Both the position numbers and the translations under genes were made by a program. Below the pieces are notes generated by a model that was given only the letters and a program-made list of their open reading frames with translations, ran no database searches and had not been told where the DNA came from. 35,091 nt of DNA from a virus (Duplodnaviria > Caudoviricetes), in IMG/VR virus record IMGVR_UViG_3300038365_000149, positions 1 to 35,091 of that record, one strand, 5' to 3'. This document shows, in pieces, positions 1,373-33,584 of the stretch (within the stretch, counting starts at the first letter, position 1; every line of letters begins with the position of its first letter).

Positions 1373-1852
1373 ATGGACAAGCTAGACAAGATCAACAGGA
1401 TCGTGAGCCGGCTCGACCTCTACGTGATGAACGATGGCAAGCTCATCGATCATCAGAGCGTCATCGAGATAGTCATGGAGGCGGCGCTCGGGTGGGGGGA
1501 GATCATCCTCCAGGAGAAGACCAAGGCCAACTACGTGCGCTTCTTGGTCGACTCCCGCGTGCTCGAACGGGTGAACGAGGACACCTATCGCTTCCACGGC
1601 GACCGGTGGACCTACGCCAGGGAGAAGGTCGAGGACGCCTTGGCCGCCAGGCCGCTGAGCATGAACCAATCGCTCGCGGTCGACATGCTCGCGTCCGGCT
1701 GTTCGGACGCGGAGACGGCGGCGCAGGTCGGCGTGGACCGCTCGACGGTGTGGAGGTGGCGGACATCCTCCCGAAGCTTCATCACCCAGCTGTCAGCGGC
1801 CAAGCAAGAGCGGACCGAACGGATCGAGGTCACGATCGAGGCGGTGCGCTGA
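1373..1852 (+). CDS. DNA-binding protein with N-terminal winged-helix-like region and C-terminal HTH (phBC6A51/HTH_23-like)
   Basis: ATG 1373 after GAGGA. C-terminal QSLAVDMLASGCSDAETAAQVGVDRSTVWRWR is an HTH; N-terminal YVRFLVDSRVLERVNEDTYRF resembles a helix plus wing. Confidence 0.75.
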   Translation: MDKLDKINRIVSRLDLYVMNDGKLIDHQSVIEIVMEAALGWGEIILQEKTKANYVRFLVDSRVLERVNEDTYRFHGDRWTYAREKVEDALAARPLSMNQSLAVDMLASGCSDAETAAQVGVDRSTVWRWRTSSRSFITQLSAAKQERTERIEVTIEAVR

Positions 1853-1854
1853 GC

Positions 1855-2053
1855 ATGATCGCCCGCTACCGCCCCGTGACCTACGAGGACCTGCCGGCCA
1901 TCAAGCGCGCTCTGCGCCGCGTCGACGAGCCGTTCCGGGCCTCGGAGCTCGTGCCCCACCTGCCCGAGGTCCTGCGCGACCTGGAGCCCCGTGAGATCGG
2001 TCGAGCACTGTTATACAGGGGACTTGCGGAGCGGGCGGGCGATCATCAGCTGA
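1855..2053 (+). pseudogene. Small winged-helix-like gene, apparently frameshifted just before its natural stop
   Basis: ATG 1855 (MIARYRPVTYEDLPAIKRAL...EIGRALLYRGLAER). The TGA at 2051-2053, followed by the SD and ATG of the next gene, is in the +1 frame after a GGGC/GGCG duplication near 2032-2041. Confidence 0.45.
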
Positions 2054-2062
2054 GGAGGCGAC

Positions 2063-2233
2063 ATGTCTCGAATGATCAAGGAGGACGGGCCGCCGAGGTG
2101 CCCGGACTGTCAGAGCGACCGCATCATCCGCAGGCAGCCGGACAAGCGATACTGCATGGACTGCTCGGCGGAGTGGACGGCGGTCACAGAGACCCGACCG
2201 CATCGGCGGCCGGGAAAGGAACTGAGATTCTAG
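2063..2233 (+). CDS. 56-aa zinc-ribbon protein (absent from ORF track)
   Basis: GAGGAGG SD, ATG 2063; MSRMIKEDGPPRCPDCQSDRIIRRQPDKRYCMDCSAEW..., a CxxC-x14-CxxC motif. Confidence 0.75.
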   Translation: MSRMIKEDGPPRCPDCQSDRIIRRQPDKRYCMDCSAEWTAVTETRPHRRPGKELRF

Positions 2234-2244
2234 GAGATATGAGA

Positions 2245-3378
2245 ATGACAACTGAAACAGAACCTACTAGCGAGAGCCAGATGTGCGCAGCCTGCGCCAA
2301 CCTGAACAGCGCGCTGTGCGATGACGTATGCCATGGCAAGAGTGAGTGGAAGAGCAAGCAGAAGAACCGGAAGAAGCCCGAGGACGCGCCTAAGGCTCCC
2401 GCCGTCCACGAGGACGGGACGATCATCGGGACCATCAACAACCCCGAGGCCCTGGATGCGCTGGAGAAGTGCAAGCACCACGGCGAGAAGGTCGATGTCA
2501 ACGAGGAAGGTGTGACTTTCTGCTCGGAGTGTGGTCTGGCCGCACCGACAAACCCAGTCCCAGAAGAGGAGTCTAGGAAGTGCTCCGACTGCAACGACAT
2601 CAACAGCGCGGAGCGCTGCATCTACTGCGATGGAGATCCCAACGAGGACCGCGCGGGGGACAAGTTCATCCCGGAGGACAAAGCGGTCGAGCAGGTGCAG
2701 CAGGTCCCCGGTGACGAGCCGAACTGGGACACCTTCGACGACCGCGCTGCCGCCGCCCCGGATCCCATGATGGAGGAGGGGCAGGGCGAACCGCAGCACG
2801 CCCTCGTGCCCATAGACGCCCCGACCGAGCCGTGGTGGACCGGCGGGCCGCTCGACACCGTCACCCCCAAGGGTGAGATCATCGGCATGCCCTGGCACAC
2901 CGCGGTGCTCAAGCTCCCGGCCGGACAGTACCTAGTGCTCAAGGCAGGAGACTACAACTTCGGAGGCATCAAGGCGACGTTGACCGATCCGATGATGGTC
3001 AAGTGCCCCTGCGAGCCGGACGACATCCTGAAGGGCATGCTCATGGTCACAGAGGCGGACGCCAGGTCCGCAGCCGAGGAGGAGAGCAGAACAGAGTACC
3101 GCCCAGGCCACAACGGTCAGAGCACCCTGGAGGGCGAGCCGCTGGTCCGCGGCTGCATCGAGCGCAATCCAGTAGTGCAGGTCTGCGTGACCGTGGACAA
3201 GTTCCTCCTCAGAACGACCGAGGAGGGCCTGGAGCGCGCGATGGACAAGGAGCCAGGGGAGCTGGAGCAGTGGATATATCGCAAGATGCGCCCGCTCGGC
3301 AAGGAGACGGTCATCGGCAAGGACGATTGGGCGGAGGGCATGCGTCAGCTACGCACCGTCATCGAGGGGGCGGACTGA
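2245..3378 (+). CDS. Cys-rich multi-zinc-finger hypothetical protein
   Basis: AGGAG SD, ATG 2245; CAAC..C..C, CKHH..CSEC and CSDC..CIYC clusters, acidic linker, globular C-terminus. Confidence 0.7.
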   Translation: MTTETEPTSESQMCAACANLNSALCDDVCHGKSEWKSKQKNRKKPEDAPKAPAVHEDGTIIGTINNPEALDALEKCKHHGEKVDVNEEGVTFCSECGLAAPTNPVPEEESRKCSDCNDINSAERCIYCDGDPNEDRAGDKFIPEDKAVEQVQQVPGDEPNWDTFDDRAAAAPDPMMEEGQGEPQHALVPIDAPTEPWWTGGPLDTVTPKGEIIGMPWHTAVLKLPAGQYLVLKAGDYNFGGIKATLTDPMMVKCPCEPDDILKGMLMVTEADARSAAEEESRTEYRPGHNGQSTLEGEPLVRGCIERNPVVQVCVTVDKFLLRTTEEGLERAMDKEPGELEQWIYRKMRPLGKETVIGKDDWAEGMRQLRTVIEGAD

Positions 3379-11900: not shown

Positions 11901-12172
11901 AGCATCGCTGCGCCATGTGCGGCGACGAGGCCGAGCAGCTGATCCTCTACGACGGGTTCCTGTTCTGCGGCCGAGAGTGCATCCGCGCCTACGACCGCGC
12001 CGAGCCGGAGCGCAGGATGCTGGTGCACTTCTACGACGGCGACGTGCGCTACGTCGGCGAGGACGGGATCGACGTCGACTTCGCCCTGATAGATGGCACG
12101 TCGCCTCAGACCCCGCAGGCGGGGGAGACCTGGGAGATAACGATGCGGCGGATCTGCGGTGACGTTAAATAA
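11897..12172 (+). CDS. TRASH/FCS-like zinc-finger protein
   Basis: GTGA overlap, GGAGG SD; CAMC...FLFCGREC. Confidence 0.65.
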   Translation: MKHRCAMCGDEAEQLILYDGFLFCGRECIRAYDRAEPERRMLVHFYDGDVRYVGEDGIDVDFALIDGTSPQTPQAGETWEITMRRICGDVK

Positions 12173-12183
12173 TTGCCACTTTT
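12157..12183 (+). promoter_or_regulatory. 27-bp late-promoter repeat, copy 1
   Basis: CGGTGACGTTAAATAATTGCCACTTTT; TTAAATA starts 27 nt before the portal ATG. Confidence 0.8.
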
Positions 12184-12191
12184 GATTCCTG

Positions 12192-14405
12192 ATGTCACTG
12201 CGGACCAGGCTCGGTAACTTCCTCCTAGGCAACAAGGCGGCCGCCGACACCGCCGACACATATCGTCCGGGCCTCTCGCCCATCGACATGCTCAACTTCG
12301 GCCTGGTCCAGCCGTACATCTTCCAGGCGTACGTCTACCACGAGAACTGCTCGATCCTGTGCGACATCGACATCACGCTTACCCAGGAGACGTTCCGCAA
12401 TGGCATCGGCATCGAGCCACGATTTGTTCTCAGGTGCCGACAGTGCGGGCACGAGCTCCAGGAGACGGCCGATCAGTGCCCCTCCTGCTCATCCGACCAG
12501 CTGGACGAGCCGCTGTGGGCGCAGCAGAGGTTCTTCGAGCACCTGGACGGGACGTCGTTCCTCGACCGGGCCAACTACTCCGGGCAGACGCTGCAAGAGG
12601 TCTGCGAGAACGCGGCGCATCATCTGCACGTGGCGGACAACGGCTACCTGCTGGCCGTCAAGACCTACATGTTCAGCGCCGACGGCTCGGTGAAGGAGTC
12701 ATTCGTCAAGGAGATCATATCGCTCGACCCGCGCTGGGTGGAGAAGGTGTTCGACAAGCGCGGCGTGCCCGGCGGCCGGCATCGCCTGTGCCTCGCGCAC
12801 CGCGACGCGCTGCTCGGCCCGGAGGACTATCGCTGCCCCGAGTGCGGCCGACCGACGCACGACGTGACGTTCAAGGTCGTCACCTCCAACAACGGCGTCG
12901 CCTACTATGTCGACGATGAGATCGTCCACCTGACCGCGTTCTACCCGCACCCGCTGTACGGCACCCCTCCGTGCTACAAGATCCTGCACGAGGTGCAGGC
13001 GTACATGTACATCACCGGGAGGGTGGCCAATTATTACAAGAAGGGCCGCGCGCCCGGTGTCATCGCCGTTCGGACCAACAATCCCAAGGCCATAGACGAG
13101 ACGATCAAGAAGGTCAACCTCCAGCTGGAGAAGGATCCCCATGCCGCCCCCTACTTCCCGGTCGACAACCTCCAGGGCAGCGGGGAGTTCATGAAGTGGG
13201 TGCCGTTCATGCAGGACCCCTGCCCCGACATGATGGCCGTCAAGGACGAGGTCCGTCGGGCCATCTGCGCGTTCTTCGGAATCCCGCCGATGGTGGAGTC
13301 GGACACATCGGCCAGCGGCGGCCTCAACGACGAAGGGCATCAGATCACGCTGCTCAACCGCCGCACGCAGAGAGAGCAAGCCCCGTTCAACAACCGGGCG
13401 TTCCCTTGGATGTTCAAGCAGTTCGGCATCACTGACCTTAAGCTGGTGCTCAACAAGTCGGAGAAGGCCGACGAGAAGGCGGACATGGAGCTGCGGCTGC
13501 TTGAGGACCAGCACGCCCAGAACCTCATGAACATGGGCTACGACGTCTGGATCGAGGGTGGGAAGTACAAGCACTCCGACCGGCCGACCGAGAAGCGGCC
13601 GCCGGTGTTCCTGCCGTCCGGGCAGGCGGACGGTACATCGTTACCAGCAACTCAGGGCACGCCCCGCCCGGAGTCGGGAGTGCCGGGCAACAAGGGAGAG
13701 CGATGTCCGAACGGACAGCATTCTCATGGTGATTATGGCGGCGGGCGTTGCCATCCAGAGGAACAGCACCACCGAGACGGCGAGCGACATGAGGAGAGCG
13801 AGCGGCGAGGGCCGCGGCAAGGCTCATACGCGGAAGCGTCGGAAGAGCGGCGGACGGCGTCTATCAAGAGCATCAAGGCCAAAGGGGTCAAGGTGGAGAA
13901 CGCAGAAGGTGCTCATCACAAGGTGCTGGAATACGTAGACTCTGGCCTAGACGAAGCAGTACGACATGAAACGCCATTGCCCGGTCGTATGAAGCTCGAT
14001 CGTAGCTACGCCGAGAAGAGGCGAAACGTGCTCGGGCTGCCGATGGCCTACGACCCTGAGGGTGACGTCCTTCTCATCAACCCGGATTCCATCTTCCTGC
14101 AGGCCGGCACGATAAACCTCCGAGGTAGCATCGATACATTGTTCCGCAAGGGAGAGTCCTCGACCGGAAGCCCTCTTCACATCATCAGGCACGAGCTCGG
14201 CCATGTGGCAAATGTCAAGGCTGGGAGATCACCCGGTAAGGAGTTCGGCGATGAAGGGCATAGGAAGCTGGCGGCGACCGTCAGTAAGAGAGCGGCGGAA
14301 GACCCTGCAGAGTTCGTGGCCGAGGTCTTCGCCGGCCGCCTAGCCGGGAACCAATACACTGATGAGGTCATGCGGCTATACGCTCACTACTTCGGAGGGA
14401 AGTGA
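12192..14405 (+). CDS. Portal protein with zinc-ribbon insertions and a C-terminal zincin-like metallopeptidase domain
   Basis: Position after terL; portal motifs (HLHVADNGYL, DDEIVHL..YGTPP, ICAFFGIPP, GGLNDEGHQI); C-terminal HELGH plus EFVAEVF. Confidence 0.85.
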   Translation: MSLRTRLGNFLLGNKAAADTADTYRPGLSPIDMLNFGLVQPYIFQAYVYHENCSILCDIDITLTQETFRNGIGIEPRFVLRCRQCGHELQETADQCPSCSSDQLDEPLWAQQRFFEHLDGTSFLDRANYSGQTLQEVCENAAHHLHVADNGYLLAVKTYMFSADGSVKESFVKEIISLDPRWVEKVFDKRGVPGGRHRLCLAHRDALLGPEDYRCPECGRPTHDVTFKVVTSNNGVAYYVDDEIVHLTAFYPHPLYGTPPCYKILHEVQAYMYITGRVANYYKKGRAPGVIAVRTNNPKAIDETIKKVNLQLEKDPHAAPYFPVDNLQGSGEFMKWVPFMQDPCPDMMAVKDEVRRAICAFFGIPPMVESDTSASGGLNDEGHQITLLNRRTQREQAPFNNRAFPWMFKQFGITDLKLVLNKSEKADEKADMELRLLEDQHAQNLMNMGYDVWIEGGKYKHSDRPTEKRPPVFLPSGQADGTSLPATQGTPRPESGVPGNKGERCPNGQHSHGDYGGGRCHPEEQHHRDGERHEESERRGPRQGSYAEASEERRTASIKSIKAKGVKVENAEGAHHKVLEYVDSGLDEAVRHETPLPGRMKLDRSYAEKRRNVLGLPMAYDPEGDVLLINPDSIFLQAGTINLRGSIDTLFRKGESSTGSPLHIIRHELGHVANVKAGRSPGKEFGDEGHRKLAATVSKRAAEDPAEFVAEVFAGRLAGNQYTDEVMRLYAHYFGGK

Positions 14406-15229
14406 TGACGTTCGACCTATCCCTATGCCTTCTCTGCAAGCGGCTCATCCCAGAGCCTGGGAAAGGCTGCGAAGCATTTCCAGAGAGGATCCCTGACGAC
14501 ATCTGGGAGAACAGAGTATATCATGTGCTGTCGTTCCCCGGCGACAATGGCCTGATGTTCTCCCCGGTGAATGAGTACATCGATATTCAGAGAATCATCG
14601 ACGCAGAGCGGGAGAGAAGGGCTGAGAGCGATGCATCTGACAAGTCCGCGCCGTTCGAAGAGGTCCGATACACCGGCAACGAGGACGTCGATGCGGTGCT
14701 GTTCGCCGAGGTCATGGTGAATAAGGCCCTCACTCGCGACAGGGCGAAGGAGATACTGGACGCGCTGCTCCGCGTCACCGTTCCCGACTCGTTCCTGGCA
14801 CTGTCGCCGTCTCAAGCGAGGATCGCCATGGAGAAGCTGGTGGACGCCATGACCCAGGCCGGCGGCTGGTCCGTTTCCGGCGTGGTCGACGCGCTTAGGA
14901 AGGCGTTCCCCTCGGTGGACGACTTCCAGCTCCGCCGCATCGTACGCACCGAGAGCGCCCGCATCGCCACCAGGGCGCACGAGATCGAGGCTGTAGAGAA
15001 CGACCCCCCGACCGCTCGTTACGCATGGCGCGGGCCGCGGGACTGGAGGACATGCAGGATACATCAGGCGATCATCGAGAGGCAGCCTCAGGAGGGTCTA
15101 TCGTTGGAACGGCTCAAAACCCACGTGGCCCAGGTGGCGGCGGAGTTCGGCATCAAGGTCCAAGACGATTGGATCGTGCACCCGAACCAGCGCGGCAGTT
15201 TCACGCGAGTATTCTCGCTCGAACGGTGA
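14405..15229 (+). CDS. MuF (gpF-like) head morphogenesis protein with an N-terminal CxxC-CxAFP domain
   Basis: C-terminal RRIVRTESARI...YAWRGPRDWRTCRIH...HPNQRGSF is a MuF signature; N-terminal CLLCK...CEAFPERIPDDIW...H...GDNGLMF. Confidence 0.8.
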   Translation: MTFDLSLCLLCKRLIPEPGKGCEAFPERIPDDIWENRVYHVLSFPGDNGLMFSPVNEYIDIQRIIDAERERRAESDASDKSAPFEEVRYTGNEDVDAVLFAEVMVNKALTRDRAKEILDALLRVTVPDSFLALSPSQARIAMEKLVDAMTQAGGWSVSGVVDALRKAFPSVDDFQLRRIVRTESARIATRAHEIEAVENDPPTARYAWRGPRDWRTCRIHQAIIERQPQEGLSLERLKTHVAQVAAEFGIKVQDDWIVHPNQRGSFTRVFSLER

Positions 15230-15250
15230 CGTTAAATAATTGCCACTTTT
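15224..15250 (+). promoter_or_regulatory. 27-bp late-promoter repeat, copy 2
   Basis: Identical to 12157-12183; TTAAATA starts 27 nt before ATG 15259. Confidence 0.8.
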
Positions 15251-15258
15251 AGTTCGTG

Positions 15259-15741
15259 ATGGCACGCGACGTTGAGGCAGAGTTCGAGGACTCCGCAGCG
15301 TATCGCCGCGTGAAGCAGCTCCTTGAAGGCGGCGAGGAGTGGAGCGTCGAGTGCCGGACCATCTATTCTGAGTTCATCGAGTTCGGTGCCGGCCCGGCCG
15401 CAGGGCATGCTCGGTTCATGCCGCCGCTGAAGCCGATCCTCGAATGGACGCAACGCAAACTGGGGCTCAAGGGTGAGCAGGCCAAACGGGCCGCCGAAGG
15501 CATCCGCTGGGCCATCTATCGCTCCGGCACTAGGCCCCAACCGTTCGCCCGGCCGGCGATCCAGGACCTCAAGGCGGTCATCGGCGAGGTGGTCGGTGAT
15601 GCGCTGGAGTCCGGCGAGGACCCCATGCACGCGGTCATGGACTTCATCCGCTCCCAGATGCGGCACCATATCGACCAGAACGGCACGAACGACGAGGGCA
15701 CTCTGGCGCGCGAGATGCACATCGTGCAGGGAGGCTTGTAA
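15259..15741 (+). CDS. HK97 gp10-like virion morphogenesis protein
   Basis: YSEFIEFGAG, MPP..PI..W..RK and GTRPQPFARPA motifs. Confidence 0.7.
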   Translation: MARDVEAEFEDSAAYRRVKQLLEGGEEWSVECRTIYSEFIEFGAGPAAGHARFMPPLKPILEWTQRKLGLKGEQAKRAAEGIRWAIYRSGTRPQPFARPAIQDLKAVIGEVVGDALESGEDPMHAVMDFIRSQMRHHIDQNGTNDEGTLAREMHIVQGGL

Positions 15742-16958
15742 TGGTCTACTCATCCCTAGGTGAGCTGCCCCCGCAAGTGCGCGGCGCGCTGGACCCCGAG
15801 GACCAGCAGGTATGGCTCATCGCGTACAATCAGGCCGTGATCGAGACCAAGGACCCCCGCGAGGCGTTCCGCGTGGCATGGCATGCCGCCGCCAAGGGCG
15901 AGAACGTCCGCGCCGTGAGCGGCGTCGTCAACCGCGACGTGGTCGACAACGGCGGAGAGCGGGTCAACCAGGACGCGCTGGCCGAGGCCATCAACGACGC
16001 CATCTGGAACAGCGGCGCGACCTACAACGACGTGCACAGCAACCACCCCTTCGGGGACTGGTTCGACGCCCAGGTGGAGATGGGGCCGGACGGAATCAAG
16101 CAGACCCGCATCTACGGCGCGTGCCGGAAGGGCCAGCCCTTCTATGACGCATGCTGGGAGGAGTACATCCTGGGCGGCTCCAAGACGGAGCTGAGCATCG
16201 GGATCATGAAGATCGATCCATACACCAAGTGCGAGGCCGGCCGATGCTGGAAGCAGGTCGACGGGCTCCAGGTGTTCGAGGCCTCGGCGGTTCCCAGGGG
16301 CCTGTGCCCCGGCAGCCGCCTGGATCGCATCAACTTCTCCGCCAAATCTGACACTGATGAGAGATCGCCCGTGAGGGCAGGAGACGAGGAAATGACCGAA
16401 GACGCGACCAAGACGGCCGCGCCCCCCATGGCCGACAAGGAGGAGCCGAAAGGCGAGCCCGAGACGGCTGCCCCCGAAACCGGGAGCACGGGGGCGCTGG
16501 AGGAGGGAGTGCAGAAGCTCATGGGAATGCTGGCGGAGATCAACGCCCGCCTGGACCGGATGGAGGCCAGTATGGCCGCCCTGAGACCAGCCCCCGTCGA
16601 TTCCGATGAGAAGGCGGAGGACGAAGCGCAGGAAGCTCCCCCGGAAGAGGCCCCTGAGAACAAGGAGGACGAGGGGGAGCCGAAACAGGAGGCGGGGGAC
16701 AAGTGCGGCTGCTCCAAACAGGCCAGCAACAAGGCCGCCGATCTCGTAGCCGCCAACAAGGCCGCGAGAAAGGAGGCGGAGCAGCGCGGGACGTCCGCGC
16801 AGCGCCCCGAGGCGCCGCTCGACGGCAATCCGGCCAAGACCCAGAAGGTCAAGGCCGAGAGCATGGAGGACAGAATGAGACGCTACGCCGGCATGTCCGC
16901 GGCGGAGCTGGAGGCGGAGGGAAATCAGATCACCTCGGCGATGAACAGGACGGTGTAA
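15741..16958 (+). CDS. ChaB domain + HK97-type prohead protease + scaffold region
   Basis: N-terminal YSSLGELPPQVRGAL..QQVWLIAYN..AFRVAWHAA (ChaB); VDNGGERV, DVH, LSIG and EASAV (protease); acidic coiled-coil C-terminus. Confidence 0.85.
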   Translation: MVYSSLGELPPQVRGALDPEDQQVWLIAYNQAVIETKDPREAFRVAWHAAAKGENVRAVSGVVNRDVVDNGGERVNQDALAEAINDAIWNSGATYNDVHSNHPFGDWFDAQVEMGPDGIKQTRIYGACRKGQPFYDACWEEYILGGSKTELSIGIMKIDPYTKCEAGRCWKQVDGLQVFEASAVPRGLCPGSRLDRINFSAKSDTDERSPVRAGDEEMTEDATKTAAPPMADKEEPKGEPETAAPETGSTGALEEGVQKLMGMLAEINARLDRMEASMAALRPAPVDSDEKAEDEAQEAPPEEAPENKEDEGEPKQEAGDKCGCSKQASNKAADLVAANKAARKEAEQRGTSAQRPEAPLDGNPAKTQKVKAESMEDRMRRYAGMSAAELEAEGNQITSAMNRTV

Positions 16959-16960
16959 AG

Positions 16961-18115
16961 ATGGCATACGAGTTCGCCAACAAGGGCTATTTCAAGAAGT
17001 TCGGGGACATGTGGGACGCCTACTATCCCGAGTACGCAGGCATGATGAGCGACAAGGCCGACGCGCCGTATCTGACCACGACCTCCGGGGTCCGCCAGGT
17101 CATGTTCGCCGCCGGACTGCAGGCGCAGTTCGTGGTGGACGCCAACGCCTTCGGGATGCTGCCCACCGCCAGCTGGGGCAACGGCGGCAGCGGCCGCAGG
17201 TTCATCACCGCGCCCTACTTCGGCACGTCCCCGGACGGCAGCGCGACCGAGGGAGGGGCCACCCCCGATAGCGCCAGGGATACCTTGGACACCATCAACT
17301 ACACGCCCAAGCAGCTCGCCCCCAATCCGGTGGAGATGTCGATGGTGGAGCTGAGCGTGGAGAACATCGACAACAACGCCAAGTGGTCGGAGCTGGTCGA
17401 CGCGCGCCGGGAGATCATACTCAACGAGCAGGACCAGGTCATCCTGTCCTACGCCGGCGCCGGTGTGGCCGGCACTAAACTGGAGAGCATCGACCGCATC
17501 GTCGGCTCGTACGATCAGATCACCAACGGCGGCGAGTCCATGGCGGCCAGCCGTCTCGACTACGAGGGAAAGGACCGTGACGCGGCCGCCTCCGTCTACG
17601 ATGCCCAGGTCGACCACGGGAACGGCGTGGTGCGCAAACTGAGCCTGAACCTGATCGACGCCATGACCTACAAGTGCAAACCGCACTGGAAGGGGCAGAG
17701 CATCAGGAACAAGGTCTACCTCACCGGCACTGGCTCCGAGGGCCGCATGACGCAGCTCATGAAGACCATCGTGCGCGGCGAGATCCCCACCACCCCGGTG
17801 TCCTTCGGCGTCAACGGGGTGCAGATCGTGGAGGGCGCTTCCGGACCGGTCCTCATGAACAAGTACAACGGCATGCCGATCGTCAGCGACAAGTTCGTCG
17901 ACAACCACTACGGCGCGGCCGCCGTCGGGCTGGAGAAGGTGTACGCCCTGGACCTCGACCACCTATCCATGTGGTGGTCCATGCCCTGGCAGTACCAGGA
18001 GTCGCAGGAAGTGCTCGCCACCGGCAAGCTCGGCAGGAAGGGCATCTTCCTGGCGGTCGGGAACGTCGTCGCCGACAGGTTCGGCTGCCACGGCAAGGTC
18101 CAATGCATCAACTGA
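16961..18115 (+). CDS. Major capsid protein (HK97 fold)
   Basis: 384 aa from ATG 16961, directly after the protease/scaffold gene; EGGATP, LESIDRIV, YNGMPIV, YALDLDHL and C-terminal HGKVQCIN patterns typical of HK97-fold MCPs. Confidence 0.85.
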   Translation: MAYEFANKGYFKKFGDMWDAYYPEYAGMMSDKADAPYLTTTSGVRQVMFAAGLQAQFVVDANAFGMLPTASWGNGGSGRRFITAPYFGTSPDGSATEGGATPDSARDTLDTINYTPKQLAPNPVEMSMVELSVENIDNNAKWSELVDARREIILNEQDQVILSYAGAGVAGTKLESIDRIVGSYDQITNGGESMAASRLDYEGKDRDAAASVYDAQVDHGNGVVRKLSLNLIDAMTYKCKPHWKGQSIRNKVYLTGTGSEGRMTQLMKTIVRGEIPTTPVSFGVNGVQIVEGASGPVLMNKYNGMPIVSDKFVDNHYGAAAVGLEKVYALDLDHLSMWWSMPWQYQESQEVLATGKLGRKGIFLAVGNVVADRFGCHGKVQCIN

Positions 18116-22065: not shown

Positions 22066-23358
22066 ATGGCAGAGGAGATAGGGCTGCGGGTGAAGGTTAG
22101 CACGGTCGGGGACAAGGGCGTGATGGACCGGCTCAAGGGCAACATATCCAAGAGCGTCAGCGATGGCGCCGCCAAGGCCAACATCAAGCTCCCCGGATTT
22201 CTCGGCAGCCTGCAGTCGGGCATCGAACGGACGACGGCTATGCTCGGCCGATCGCGCTCCATGGCGTCCTCCGTTCCCGGCGGAGCGGGTGGGGCAGGGA
22301 GCATGGGCATCGGCGGCCTGGCCGGGCTGACGATCATCGGGGCCGGCATCCTCAAAGGAGTGCAGGCCACGGTGGACCGGCTGGCCAAGGCGTCCCCCAT
22401 GCTGCAGTCCATCATGCGGCAGATGGACGTCGGCGTGAACATGATCCTGCGGCCGCTCGGCGATTCTGTCGCTCGCCTGTTGCGGCCCATTTCCCGTTGG
22501 CTCATGGACTACGGGATGAGGAACGCTGAGCTGGCCGATATGCAGGAGACCGCGCTACGTGATATAGGGCTGGAGGGCACTGTGCTCGATGTTGTCATGT
22601 TCTTCACGAACCTGGCCAACGTGCTGCAGGTCATTCCACAATCTATCATCCAATGGAACGTGTGGTGGATGTCCGAGCTCTACAACGCGGCAGCCGGCGC
22701 GGTCGGCTCGCTCGGCAATTGGCTCGGAGGCGTGGCCACATGGTTCCGCGACGCCATCAACGGTGCAGGGGCAGCCATAGATGAGGCCCTCGGAGGTGTC
22801 CCGAGCTGGCTGTGGGGCGCGATCACGGGAGCGCTCGACGGAGCGTGGGACACTCTGTCCAGTTTCGGCTCCTGGCTATGGAGCGGCCTAAAGGGCACTA
22901 TCACGTTCCAGGCGTTATCAGGGCTCGGCTCGTGGGTGAAGGAACAGTTCAAGAACGCCTTTTCGGCCATCAACTCGGCCCTGGGCGGCATCCCGTACGA
23001 GGCGTACAAGGTGTTCCATAATGTCATAGCGGCCATCCCCAACGGCATCCGCAACATCGAGCTGCCCCTAGTAGGCAAGCCGTTCACCTTCATTCCCGAG
23101 GTCGCCTACCTGGCGGCCGGGGGCATCACTAACGGGCCGACGATGGCCATGATAGGCGAGGGCCGCGGGGGGACACAGCGCGAGGTCGTGTCGCCGCTCA
23201 ACGAGCTGCCGAGGCTGCTCGGCCTCGACCAGCGGCGCGGATTCGACGCCCCCAAGATCGAGGTCTATATCCAGGGCAACGTGTACGGCGTCCGGGACCT
23301 GGAGGCGGCCATCGAGGAGGGTGTGAACAAATACATTCACAGGGCGAGGTCGTACTGA
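22066..23358 (+). CDS. Tape measure protein
   Basis: Gly/Ala-rich with periodic Trp repeats and C-terminal LAAGGITNGPTMAMIGEG..EVVSPL. Confidence 0.85.
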   Translation: MAEEIGLRVKVSTVGDKGVMDRLKGNISKSVSDGAAKANIKLPGFLGSLQSGIERTTAMLGRSRSMASSVPGGAGGAGSMGIGGLAGLTIIGAGILKGVQATVDRLAKASPMLQSIMRQMDVGVNMILRPLGDSVARLLRPISRWLMDYGMRNAELADMQETALRDIGLEGTVLDVVMFFTNLANVLQVIPQSIIQWNVWWMSELYNAAAGAVGSLGNWLGGVATWFRDAINGAGAAIDEALGGVPSWLWGAITGALDGAWDTLSSFGSWLWSGLKGTITFQALSGLGSWVKEQFKNAFSAINSALGGIPYEAYKVFHNVIAAIPNGIRNIELPLVGKPFTFIPEVAYLAAGGITNGPTMAMIGEGRGGTQREVVSPLNELPRLLGLDQRRGFDAPKIEVYIQGNVYGVRDLEAAIEEGVNKYIHRARSY

Positions 23359-26711: not shown

Positions 26712-27572
26712 ATGCTAGGAATGAAGGAATACGACCTTGCCAGTTATGCGACCTACAAGGTCCTGCACGCATTGGACGAATCCAAAGAAGGATATGTCCC
26801 AAAGTCAAGATATTACAAGGCAATCTATCTGGTCAGCCACAATCTTATGAGCAAGGGGATAGATATCTGCCTGCCCTGGCGCTGGTACATATATGGGCCG
26901 GTTGTAGAGCTCGACTGCATAGATGATGGCGCATTTTCATTAGAGGTCATGCCTGGAGATGCGGACGACGAAACTAAGGATAGATTATTTTATGGAGAGA
27001 AGCCAGCGGTCGACGCTCCCTTCGACATAGTGCGCATCGTTAACAATGAAGTGAAAGCCGTATGCGCGAACAATCCCAAATTGTACAGATTATTGGATAA
27101 GGCATACAAAACCGCCCCGCTCTCCTTCATCCAGATTCTGAGGCATTATGACGACAGCATACAGAGCAACTTCAAGAGGTTTACCCGAGAACCGACAGTG
27201 ATCAATAGGAACGATGATCTGAGACATGACCTCGTCCGTAACTTCCCGATTGAACCCTATCGCTCAATGTATGACTCATTTCTTAGGGTTCTTGAGCTCA
27301 TACGGGTCGTCAAGGATCCGGAAACGTTCGACGTAGTGAAACCGACAGCGTGCTCCGAAGAGCTCCGGAGGGCCATGGGGCACGGGTTCGGCCGGGACTA
27401 CTATTCTAGACATCTGCCGGAAAACAAGGTGGAGAAGTACGAAAGGGATTATGAGCGTTATATCGACATCTTCGACGATTTTGCATTTAACAAAGAGATC
27501 GAATTCTATAGGGCCACTAGCAGGCATGACTGTGCTCACTACGAGCGCGAGATCATGAATCTCCTGGGATGA
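26712..27572 (+). CDS. DUF4065/SocA (Panacea)-like protein, putative antitoxin
   Basis: KSRYYKAIYLV...LPWRWYIYGPV resembles the K.+Y / W.YGP signature; AT-richer than the flanks. Confidence 0.55.
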   Translation: MLGMKEYDLASYATYKVLHALDESKEGYVPKSRYYKAIYLVSHNLMSKGIDICLPWRWYIYGPVVELDCIDDGAFSLEVMPGDADDETKDRLFYGEKPAVDAPFDIVRIVNNEVKAVCANNPKLYRLLDKAYKTAPLSFIQILRHYDDSIQSNFKRFTREPTVINRNDDLRHDLVRNFPIEPYRSMYDSFLRVLELIRVVKDPETFDVVKPTACSEELRRAMGHGFGRDYYSRHLPENKVEKYERDYERYIDIFDDFAFNKEIEFYRATSRHDCAHYEREIMNLLG

Positions 27573-27582
27573 CTTTGAGAGG

Positions 27583-28266
27583 ATGGAAATGGCCAACTTC
27601 TTCGACACAAGCGTCTTCATTGGATACACTTACTGCGACGATGACTGGAGGGTCGCGTCGGAAGGCATGTTGCAAGGCAGCTCCATGAAGCTCACGAGCG
27701 ATAGGGCGAAGAATGAATATCTGAAAAAACACAGGTATTTTCAAAGGGTCCGGAGAGGTGGTCTCATCCAGCTCCGTGATAGAATCGCCGACTCTGTTGG
27801 GTGCGGGAGCGCCACTCTTTCATCGGACGAGGTAGAAAATCTCGTGCCTCAGATACAGAACGATGAGCGCAACACAGAATGGCTTAGGAGCACAGCCAAG
27901 AAACTGGCGAAAAAGTCATCCTATAAGGTCGAGATATGCAAGCGAATCGATAGGTTCATGGACTATTACTTTCGATTCTCGACAGAACGCATGGACGACA
28001 TTATCGGGTGGTGTTTACCGAGTGTGATGATCATTGAATGCTATCCTCGATTTCAGACATACCCAGGCATACTAGAGATATTTCAGAGCAACGGCATGCT
28101 GAACGAGGACGACAATGAGATAATACTTGATGCTCATGATTTCTGTAAGCTCTGTAATGAATCGATAGATCTCGTCACCGGGGATTACCAGGACTACAAA
28201 CGGCACGAGGCTATTATCACATCTAATACGTATATAAGTAACATAATTTACCTGGGCGACTGCTGA
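27583..28266 (+). CDS. PIN-domain ribonuclease, putative toxin
   Basis: FFDTSVFI, E in AKNEY, EDDNEIILDA and LVTGD give the four acidic PIN positions. Confidence 0.75.
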   Translation: MEMANFFDTSVFIGYTYCDDDWRVASEGMLQGSSMKLTSDRAKNEYLKKHRYFQRVRRGGLIQLRDRIADSVGCGSATLSSDEVENLVPQIQNDERNTEWLRSTAKKLAKKSSYKVEICKRIDRFMDYYFRFSTERMDDIIGWCLPSVMIIECYPRFQTYPGILEIFQSNGMLNEDDNEIILDAHDFCKLCNESIDLVTGDYQDYKRHEAIITSNTYISNIIYLGDC

Positions 28267-32512: not shown

Positions 32513-32697
32513 TGAGCCTTGAGCACTTGGTGCGGAGAGCAATGCAAATGAACGAGCTGGTCGAGCAGGCCGGCACTGGCGGTGACCGCGGCAACTCGGA
32601 TGGTTCTACCTCTCGCAACGCGGCCGATCATCCCCACCACCCTGAGACAACCGCCGCCGAGAGCCTGCCCGCCGTCAAGGAGTGGGAGTGGATCTAA
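32512..32697 (+). CDS. Small hypothetical protein
   Basis: Overlaps both neighbours by one base (TAGTG and TAATG). Confidence 0.45.
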   Translation: MSLEHLVRRAMQMNELVEQAGTGGDRGNSDGSTSRNAADHPHHPETTAAESLPAVKEWEWI

Positions 32698-33584
32698 TGG
32701 CCGCTAAGCAGGCAAGCATCGATCTACTGGCTGACATCAAGGCCGTCATCGATCAATACCCGAACATCAAGATGACGGTTAGGCAGGTCTACTACCGCCT
32801 CGTTGCACAGCAGAAGCTGCCCAACAGCACGTCCAGCTACAACCGTGTCAAGCGTGTGCTAACAGAGGCGCGACTGGAAGGTACTGTCAGTTTCGACAGC
32901 ATCGAGGACCGCACCCGGAGCATCATCTCCCCCGATGGGGAGCAGGAAGAAAGCGTCGGAAGATATACTCGGTCGTGGGAAGCCCACATCAGGAATCTGG
33001 ACGAGCATTACGACCTGCCGAGATGGTGGGGGCAGCCGTCCAAGGTCGTCGTCCTCGTGGAGAAGCAGGCCCTACAGGGTCTCTTTATGGATGTCTGTGA
33101 GGAAAGGGCAGTGGATCTGCTGGTATGCAGGGGCTACCCTTCGCTGACGGTGCTCTACAAGCTCGCCAAGAGCCTGCGCCGATGCGAGGAGGATGTGCAA
33201 CTCCTTTACTTCGGTGACTACGACCCGAGCGGCTTGGACATCGACCGGAACGTGGAGGAGAGGCTGAGCGAAGACTTTGGAGCTACATTCACCTTCGAGC
33301 GCATCGCCATCTCCCTCGACCAGATCGAGGAATACGACATTCCCCCGGCCCCGGCCAAGCTGACCGACAGCAGGACGAGGGGCATGGAAGAGAAGTACGG
33401 CGAGGCGATGCAGGTCGAGCTTGACGCCATCGATCCACCGGACCTACAGACCATCATCGGGGACGCCATCGATGCTCATTTCGATGAGGACATTTACGAC
33501 AATGATCGAGCGGACGAGCTGGAGAATAGAAGGGGCCGGGTCAAGGAGTGGCTGGATAAGCTCATAGTGCCGAGGAAAGGCTGA
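32697..33584 (+). CDS. Spo11/topoisomerase VI A-like protein (Mini-A type: wHTH plus TOPRIM)
   Basis: TVRQVYYRL (Spo11-like RxxYY), VLVEKQAL, RGYPS, YFGDYDPSGLDI and ELDAI. Confidence 0.8.
   Translation: MAAKQASIDLLADIKAVIDQYPNIKMTVRQVYYRLVAQQKLPNSTSSYNRVKRVLTEARLEGTVSFDSIEDRTRSIISPDGEQEESVGRYTRSWEAHIRNLDEHYDLPRWWGQPSKVVVLVEKQALQGLFMDVCEERAVDLLVCRGYPSLTVLYKLAKSLRRCEEDVQLLYFGDYDPSGLDIDRNVEERLSEDFGATFTFERIAISLDQIEEYDIPPAPAKLTDSRTRGMEEKYGEAMQVELDAIDPPDLQTIIGDAIDAHFDEDIYDNDRADELENRRGRVKEWLDKLIVPRKG

Follow-up and report, generated by a model that had tools for sequence, protein, structure and literature searches.

A variable zincin/CxxC cassette at the portal-MuF junction of a likely archaeal tailed virus, with a predicted protease-inhibitor pairing

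The window analysed here, a stretch of 35,091 nucleotides (IMG/VR record IMGVR_UViG_3300038365_000149, Caudoviricetes), raises the question of why the portal protein of a tailed virus should end in what looks like a metallopeptidase and why the next gene, which encodes a MuF protein, should begin with a small Cys-rich domain. The 35-kb record encodes an MCM helicase, terminase, portal, MuF, protease, capsid and tail genes together with an integrase, and the order terminase-portal-MuF-protease-capsid, taken with the integrase, is that of the head module of a temperate tailed virus. An earlier note, made from the sequence alone, had proposed that an effector on the portal and an immunity partner on MuF form a rewired version of a MuF polymorphic toxin module. 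We favour a reading of this kind, with somewhat more confidence than doubt, in which a variable effector/inhibitor pair occupies the portal-MuF junction as a rewired MuF-type module.

The cassette at the portal-MuF junction

The portal is encoded by a single open frame (12192-14405, 737 amino acids, aa), of which residues 66-453 match the portal profile phrog_18178 (E 1.4e-25). Behind this core come a linker, a Cys/His tag, a charged stretch and a 179-aa C-terminal domain bearing HELGH at 14190-14204 and then VSKRAAEDPAEFVAEVF. The stop codon TGA (14403-14405) overlaps the ATG (14405) of the following gene in a TGATG, as the earlier note had described. That gene encodes 274 aa with a CxxC domain first and MuF at the end; it opens MTFDLSLCLLC...CEAFPERIPDDIW...H...GDNGLMF and matches phrog_33375, a family of unknown function (E 7e-6). 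The MuF part matches PF04233 (E 0.006) and TIGR01641 (E 5e-4), both below the curated cut-offs.

The fusion of portal and metallopeptidase domain is real. Sequence support comes from assembled contigs, not raw reads: run X1 (12000-15400 in one piece) and run X3 (13329-14989) each show 0 differences, and both may be the source of the window DNA. When the single portal sequence was scanned against metagenomes, the sole match was an identical contig (L001), possibly from the same source as the window, and a scan of viral contigs with the same sequence gave no match. A different study yielded contig X5, which covers zincin-TGATG-CxxC-MuF and shows 53 differences in 736 bases. Independent support is given by P0162, a distinct portal-zincin protein of 745 aa, and by genome G030, which encodes a portal-zincin as one 833-aa frame; the in-frame extension first noticed in the window thus recurs outside it. 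The nearest locus having a named record, L002, is a provirus in a Methanomassiliicoccaceae assembly with a portal 81% identical to that of the window, and the window portal type occurs in 14 and the CxxC domain in 6 of 261 Methanomassiliicoccales genomes. From the nearest locus and the portal type we infer that the host is likely a methanogenic archaeon of the Methanomassiliicoccales. No tRNA genes were found in L002, L266 or L267.

We assign the C-terminal domain to the zincins from its HExxH, its downstream Glu and the zincin alpha/beta fold of its model, in agreement with the earlier identification. A phmmer search collected 441 representatives of the family at E<=0.001. HExxH is present in 144 of the 150 best matches, taken without selection, and among 62 sequences selected for HExxH the positions H109, E110, H113 and E153 (domain numbering) are invariant and E149 is at least 90% conserved. 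At another position of the active site, 77 of 123 matched relatives have Tyr and 34 have Arg; by this alignment the Arg of the window is a common natural variant. The model has a predicted local distance difference test score (pLDDT) of 93.6, and its best fold match is the catalytic domain of anthrax lethal factor (1yqy; Z 9.4, root-mean-square deviation (rmsd) 3.5 A, 157 aligned, 14% identity), followed by PPEP-2 (Z 7.6, rmsd 4.6 A, 146 aligned); these top VIA structure matches are zincin-fold domains. With lethal factor and the Pro-Pro endopeptidases the domain shares the fold only, being 14-16% identical to them and lacking translocation domains. Direct scans with Pfam, PHROG, NCBIfam and PADLOC placed the zincin in no family, a PDB search with its single sequence gave nothing, and one with the zincin profile gave weak matches (best E 0.004). 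Longer relatives of the zincin are often C-terminal domains of MuF proteins: when 55 matches with lengths of 290-1450 aa were scanned with Pfam, MuF was present in 26 (20 PF04233, 6 PF06152) and a portal domain in none; the portal profile likewise has no match among the 150 best zincin relatives.

The site of the cassette can be read from viruses in which portal and MuF are one protein, as they are in P0005, P0008 and P0010 and in 12 of 86 portal-first loci; most portals in the other loci of this set end without MuF. The junction linker of P0005 aligns with the window portal as far as N-K-G-E and resumes at P-F-E of the window MuF, and we therefore place the tag-zincin-stop-CxxC block, on this alignment, at the old portal-MuF junction, where it splits the fusion gene. 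In portal and MuF trees (quick trees, with support from the Shimodaira-Hasegawa-like approximate likelihood ratio test, SH-aLRT, only) the window clade, which includes L002, is bracketed by the fusions P0005 and P0008. A single origin of the cassette-bearing head module was considered and rejected on these quick trees: approximately unbiased (AU) tests refuse one clade for the cassette carriers (window group, L010, G030/G029), with p 9e-13 for the portal and 1.5e-5 for MuF. Whichever history of gains and losses holds, it is always at this one site that the block appears or disappears.

Two layouts were found. The window, G030, G029 (truncated portal) and G032 (break after the tag) have portal-tag-zincin followed by CxxC-MuF; L002 and L010 have a portal, then a tag..tag..zincin protein, then CxxC-MuF. 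The same cassette order is present in three separate portal/MuF lineages, and CxxC-MuF is constant across the layouts, with CxxC starting all 9 MuF homologues of similar length. The close relatives P0005, P0008 and L008 have no cassette. The proposal of an effector on the portal and a partner on MuF is thus supported by fused co-occurrence in independent genomes, but the zincin is predicted not to stay on the mature 12-mer, as discussed below.

Relative to the window, the portal cores of P0162 and P0009 are 90% and 89% identical and their zincins 43% and 45%; likewise, the MuF domains of P0166-P0170 are 82-86% identical and their CxxC domains 35-46%. In a contig of run X3, positions 13598-14639 are replaced by 1003 other bases, and similarity resumes at D79 (the shorter side is 29 bases). 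Because other bases are present, we rejected this joint as a relative without the cassette and regard it as a replacement. Apparent co-variation of zincin and CxxC (P0001/P0165, 81%/93%; P0013/P0168, 40%/39%) was not counted as evidence, its linkage being insecure, and the small share of X6 was left out as well. These alignments suggest that the cassette is exchanged among relatives, a variable effector on a conserved carrier. The slot takes other cargo too, namely the ART-like portal tail of L217 and the tagged protein of L271/L272. The lower GC content claimed for the cassette is slight overall (zincin 0.58, CxxC 0.54, portal core 0.63) and clear at third codon positions, where zincin and CxxC have 0.68 and 0.67 vs 0.90 for the portal core, 0.84 for the MuF core and 0.93 for the capsid gene.

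Several neighbouring architectures were seen in passing. L217 (2596-6308) combines the same portal family with an ART/DRAT-like C-terminal domain and then a separate MuF, a second portal-effector fusion. The Cys/His tag also leads standalone cargo proteins in L002 and L010 (two copies each) and in L271 (3998-4738) and L272 (2102-2842), where it heads an unrelated protein of ~200 aa without a zincin; it is possibly a general head-cargo tag. Proteins between portal and MuF in L195, L197 and L217 start with another recurring motif, G-x-R-G-G-x-Y, perhaps an analogous cargo tag. The phage group L208-L242 has both a short MuF (about 350 aa, without CxxC) and long MuF-zincin forms, and CxxC follows one zincin subtype there (7 loci) and not another (L208, L209, L226); L215-L240 have a MuF-zincin plus a standalone CxxC gene.

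Predicted pairing, packaging and release

CxxC is a family of ~60 aa with C, C, C and H invariant, and most phages encode it on its own, in a coupled gene. Of 80 zincin-first loci, 15 have CxxC after the zincin, which corresponds to 13 of 32 clusters at 50% identity; in those clusters it occupies the downstream slot expected of such genes. Seen from the other side, 14 of 21 CxxC-first loci follow a zincin-bearing protein, 1 comes after a polyprotein that contains an HExxH and ends in GNAT, and in 1 the DNA upstream is missing. CxxC is enriched after zincins but not exclusive to them, and we rejected strict zincin-cognate immunity because the domain also follows non-zincin effectors.

Co-folding of the two domains, suggested by the earlier note, supports their binding. 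The zincin-CxxC pair passed with a median of 0.79 (runs 0.79, 0.32 and 0.80), and the best of three controls reached 0.00; the mark is calibrated such that 116 of 157 solved pairs and 2 of 215 mismatched pairs pass. The runs share at least 65% of contacts, and the partner has a pLDDT of at least 77. In the predicted interface, CxxC residues 1-10 lie along zincin strand 56-64 and nearby helices, with H109, E110 and H113 included, such that the CxxC N-terminus is predicted to lie over HExxH in the catalytic cleft. Such a mode of binding would resemble TIMP-type plugging. A free N-terminus in that position would account for two features: the first Cys falls at position 7-9 in 27 of 37 CxxC genes, and the fusion partners seen (MuF and that of L119) are all C-terminal to the domain. 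Binding and inhibition of the zincin by CxxC are, on these models, quite probable. Among solved structures the CxxC model has no match at Z>=2, although this is no proof of a new fold, and in BFVD it matches three small phage proteins; a tblastn search of CxxC against 50,697 phage records found no match. The L119 protein headed by CxxC (1562-3133; 500 aa) has a PI3/4-kinase-like domain and is encoded immediately behind a zincin.

Copies of the pair also lie outside head modules. In the host-order genome G028 two zincin-CxxC pairs stand apart from any portal or MuF gene: the first lies among core genes, between those for an aldolase and carbamoyl-phosphate synthase, and the second is close to AAA_21/RloB genes. 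In G021 an MmeI-type methylase has two CxxC genes in its neighbourhood; a broken zincin precedes one of them, and for the other no zincin lies within 1.5 kb. Two of these orphan copies end in remnants resembling a MuF start, which suggests that they are of viral origin. Immunity genes of polymorphic toxins are typically retained, like the small CxxC gene here. Polyimmunity has been noted for such toxins (PMC11699363).

How the cassette might leave the portal is suggested by its borders. The gene at 15741 has no direct Pfam match (PF04586); by hhalign it reaches A8 (98.9%, E 4e-17), 11 of 12 A8 members match PF04586, and its His and Ser motifs are conserved, so that this profile chain makes its product a probable S78 (HK97-type) prohead protease. 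The motif [ND]K[ASG] occurs 9 times in 1800 head residues vs 9 times in 6715 others (p 0.006), with sites at the N-termini of portal and capsid protein and at either border of the cassette. In all 6 portal-zincin proteins, which come from two lineages, K[SAG] stands at most 10 residues ahead of the tag; K80 is invariant in 10 of 10 CxxC-MuF proteins, and most relatives have K[SGA] ahead of the protease domain. The HK97 cleavage site is K103/S104 (PMC10275583), and in SPN3US the prohead protease trims portal and cargo at a shared motif (PMC10052503); compared with internal head proteins of the T4/SPN3US type, which the prohead protease matures, the motif of the window, Lys before a small residue, is deduced from sequence. 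Cleavage of the Lys border sites by the S78 protease appears reasonably likely, and with such sites at its borders the zincin would not stay on the mature 12-mer.

The reading we favour would then run as follows. A single late transcript (repeats at 12164 and 15231) and the TGATG coupling would yield protease and inhibitor together, and translational coupling would give each protease an inhibitor, thus protecting the producing cell. The 20-bp AT-rich element has 2 exact matches, which bracket the portal-MuF unit, vs 0 in 100 shuffles, and the L002 portal is preceded by a similar element. The zincin-CxxC bond would keep the enzyme inactive and join MuF to the portal again, so that both enter the prohead. 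In SPP1, gp7 is bound directly by the portal and is brought into the procapsid in this way (PMC6316719), so the zincin-CxxC bond may only reinforce the MuF-portal link. The S78 protease would cut Lys-Gly (501/502) and Lys-Ser (80/81), so that portal, MuF and a tag-zincin:CxxC unit would each lie free within the head. Zincin and CxxC would come apart when the contents of the virion are ejected, leaving the zincin to attack a protein in the cell just infected, for example a defence factor or, if that cell is not immune, an essential protein. We regard packaging of zincin and CxxC in the head as probable, and the role of the zincin as a host-directed effector as plausible to a slightly lesser degree.

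A bolder version is possible but tentative. A self-inserting pair would replace the broken portal-MuF peptide link with its own bond; the inhibitor would be the tether, such that neither half could be lost, and in L002/L010 CxxC may bring the free zincin to MuF. Twelve silenced proteases per head, freed by the prohead protease at the Lys sites, would be fired into methanogens, chromosomes would capture orphans as armour, and CxxC would be a widespread, unnamed family of zinc-binding metalloprotease inhibitors acting through the N-terminus.

Competing roles for the pair

Several observations weigh against the effector/inhibitor reading. No CxxC is present in the locus for 19 of 32 zincin clusters, and 5 of the 21 CxxC-first loci follow a non-zincin gene (2 ART by Pfam; the remaining ones presumably JAB-like (2) and integrase-like (1), from their motifs). 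One of the three co-fold runs gave only 0.32, and Foldseek returned no match for the zincin model at E<=0.001 (best E 0.017). On the MuF tree, three gains and one gain followed by three precise losses fit almost equally well. The [ND]K[ASG] motif was chosen after inspecting these head proteins, K[SAG] dipeptides are common in Lys-rich linkers, and 5 of 15 fusion linkers have no K[SAG] in the stretch examined. Co-packaging with an inhibitor, moreover, leaves the activation of the enzyme to be explained.

The zincin might instead be morphogenetic, cutting the virus's own head proteins or cargo polyproteins, with CxxC delaying it until the prohead is built and no host target involved. Autoproteolysis is proposed in PMC5512222 as a main role of polyvalent-protein metallopeptidases, which also speaks against our preferred account; the zincin family is multi-copy in the giant proteins P0012 and P0016, and the predicted binding would suit a timing inhibitor equally well. 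We nevertheless consider this role unlikely, as the close relatives P0005, P0008 and L008 do without the cassette, the virus has a probable S78 protease of its own, and divergence is far quicker in the zincin than in the sequences around it; for a purely morphogenetic module, one would not expect host-order genomes to keep orphan pairs and lone CxxC genes.

To a similarly small extent we credit CxxC with being a general loading adaptor or metal chaperone, which on MuF would hook the preceding effector into the capsid. That it also follows ART, GNAT-ended and presumably JAB-like proteins, stays on MuF where the zincin is standalone (L002, L010) and heads the cargo-like 500-aa protein of L119 would fit such a role. 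The predicted interface, however, covers the catalytic residues, CxxC is a standalone gene of ~60 aa in most phages and is kept alone in G021, and the non-zincin neighbours may be displaced cassettes. This explanation overlaps with the effector/inhibitor reading, which assigns CxxC both roles.

A little less probable still is that the pair is a toxin-antitoxin or superinfection module of the lysogen or of lytic growth, the fusions being a by-product of insertion and the packaging incidental. The virus has an integrase, chromosomes hold orphan pairs without head genes, and insertion inside a fusion gene would yield both fusions by geometry alone. Yet the genes stand behind a likely late promoter, three lineages keep both fusions in frame, with Lys sites flanking the cassette, and the Cys/His tag recurs on head-module cargo. 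An assembly artefact or decaying accident is very improbable: the identical contigs may all be the window's own source, the copies in P0003 and G032 are broken and the G029 portal is truncated, but the intact fusions of P0162 and G030, the CxxC start of 9/9 CxxC-MuF homologues, the separately obtained contig X5 and the intact catalytic residues of the zincin largely refute this reading.

Related systems and surrounding genes

The closest known systems are the MuF polymorphic toxins, with which the window shares the head-module location, a temperate virus, a variable enzymatic domain and a coupled downstream partner (PMC5576092); the same zincin family is found on MuF in the 26 of 55 longer relatives given above. 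Jamet et al. (2017; PMC5576092) class 20% of 191 MuF toxins as metallopeptidases, and Bxa and Apk2 are MuF polymorphic toxins described in PMC11699363, where the biological role of MuF-type toxins is called unknown. Those toxins carry the effector on the MuF C-terminus and have a separate small immunity open reading frame (ORF), whereas in the window the effector is on the portal, upstream of MuF, and the partner is fused to the MuF N-terminus. The window cassette, unlike theirs, splits a portal-MuF fusion, and its host is likely archaeal; the term 'archae' does not occur in the main text of PMC5576092. The window module would work like a MuF toxin-immunity module, but we do not file it as a member because the toxin is not on MuF and the immunity ORF is not separate.

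The second comparison is with polyvalent virion proteins, in which MPTase is the commonest domain (Iyer et al. 2017, PMC5512222; 2022, PMC9503650). PBECR, 2H, InPase, Nudix and ART domains are fused there to portal or MuF and proposed to be packaged and injected, and the window likewise fuses a conflict-type enzymatic domain to a head protein in a portal-terminase virus. Effector-portal fusions are therefore already known from these two papers; the parts of their text covered name no portal-MPTase fusion, MuF inhibitor or portal-MuF-fusion insertion. A literature search, mostly of open-access main texts, found no portal-zincin fusion, CxxC-MuF fusion or CxxC inhibitor family, and the supplements of PMC5512222 and PMC5576092 may list such architectures. 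Of the suggestion that this is an undescribed system, the variant arrangement stands, but portal-fused effectors as such were described before (PMC5512222, PMC9503650).

The locus is a natural rearrangement that bears on how MuF toxins enter the head, how their partners behave during assembly and how they act on infection, and it offers a defined predicted inhibitor interface, two candidate cleavage sites and natural variants. It assigns a likely function to an unnamed family of small phage proteins (phrog_33375-like) and widens the range of virion-delivered effector/immunity conflict to include viruses whose hosts are likely Methanomassiliicoccales, where there are signs of cassette capture on the host side. 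The features of the locus are collected in Table 1.

Table 1. Coordinates of the cassette and of associated head-module features in the window
Feature	Position	Strand	Remarks
Portal core, residues 1-470	12192..13601	+	Core ends at about residue 465-470 of the 737-aa ORF
Linker ending N500-K501-G502	13602..13703	+	Matches the end of the P0005 fusion linker; likely prohead-protease site
Cys/His tag (C-x-H-x-H-x-D...C-H)	13704..13772	+	Begins at C505 (13704)
Zincin metallopeptidase domain	13866..14405	+	H667-E668-x-x-H671 (14190-14204); third ligand probably E707, from the alignment
CxxC domain	14405..14578	+	C8, C11, C22 and H40 invariant in 32 aligned members; predicted zincin inhibitor
D79-K80-S81, CxxC/MuF border	14639..14647	+	K80 invariant; likely prohead-protease site
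MuF (SPP1 gp7-like) core	14645..15229	+	Homologous to the C-terminal domain of portal-MuF fusions
ChaB + probable S78 (HK97-type) prohead protease + scaffold-like tail	15741..16958	+	Protease domain about 15900-16349
Major capsid protein	16961..18115	+	N-K-G (7-9) and D-K-A (31-33) near the N-terminus
AT-rich 20-bp element	12164..12183	+	Upstream of the portal; exact copy at 15231-15250; likely late promoter

Some further observations concern the rest of the window. The portal itself (12192-12900) has two Cys-rich, zinc-ribbon-like insertions, C82/C85/C96/C99 and C200/H203/C215/C218, which are invariant in 8 aligned relatives. A tape-measure-like protein (22066-23358) is 430 aa long, which implies a short tail. 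At 26712-28266 there are two coupled low-GC genes (GC about 0.48; 286 + 227 aa) with no Pfam, PHROG or PADLOC match; the second shows what we take to be a PIN-like pattern of acidic motifs, and the two are possibly a toxin-antitoxin pair. Directly before the integrase, 32682-33584 encodes a Toprim-like DUF2399 protein (phrog_6247 'DNA topoisomerase', E 5e-67) with weak JetD matches.

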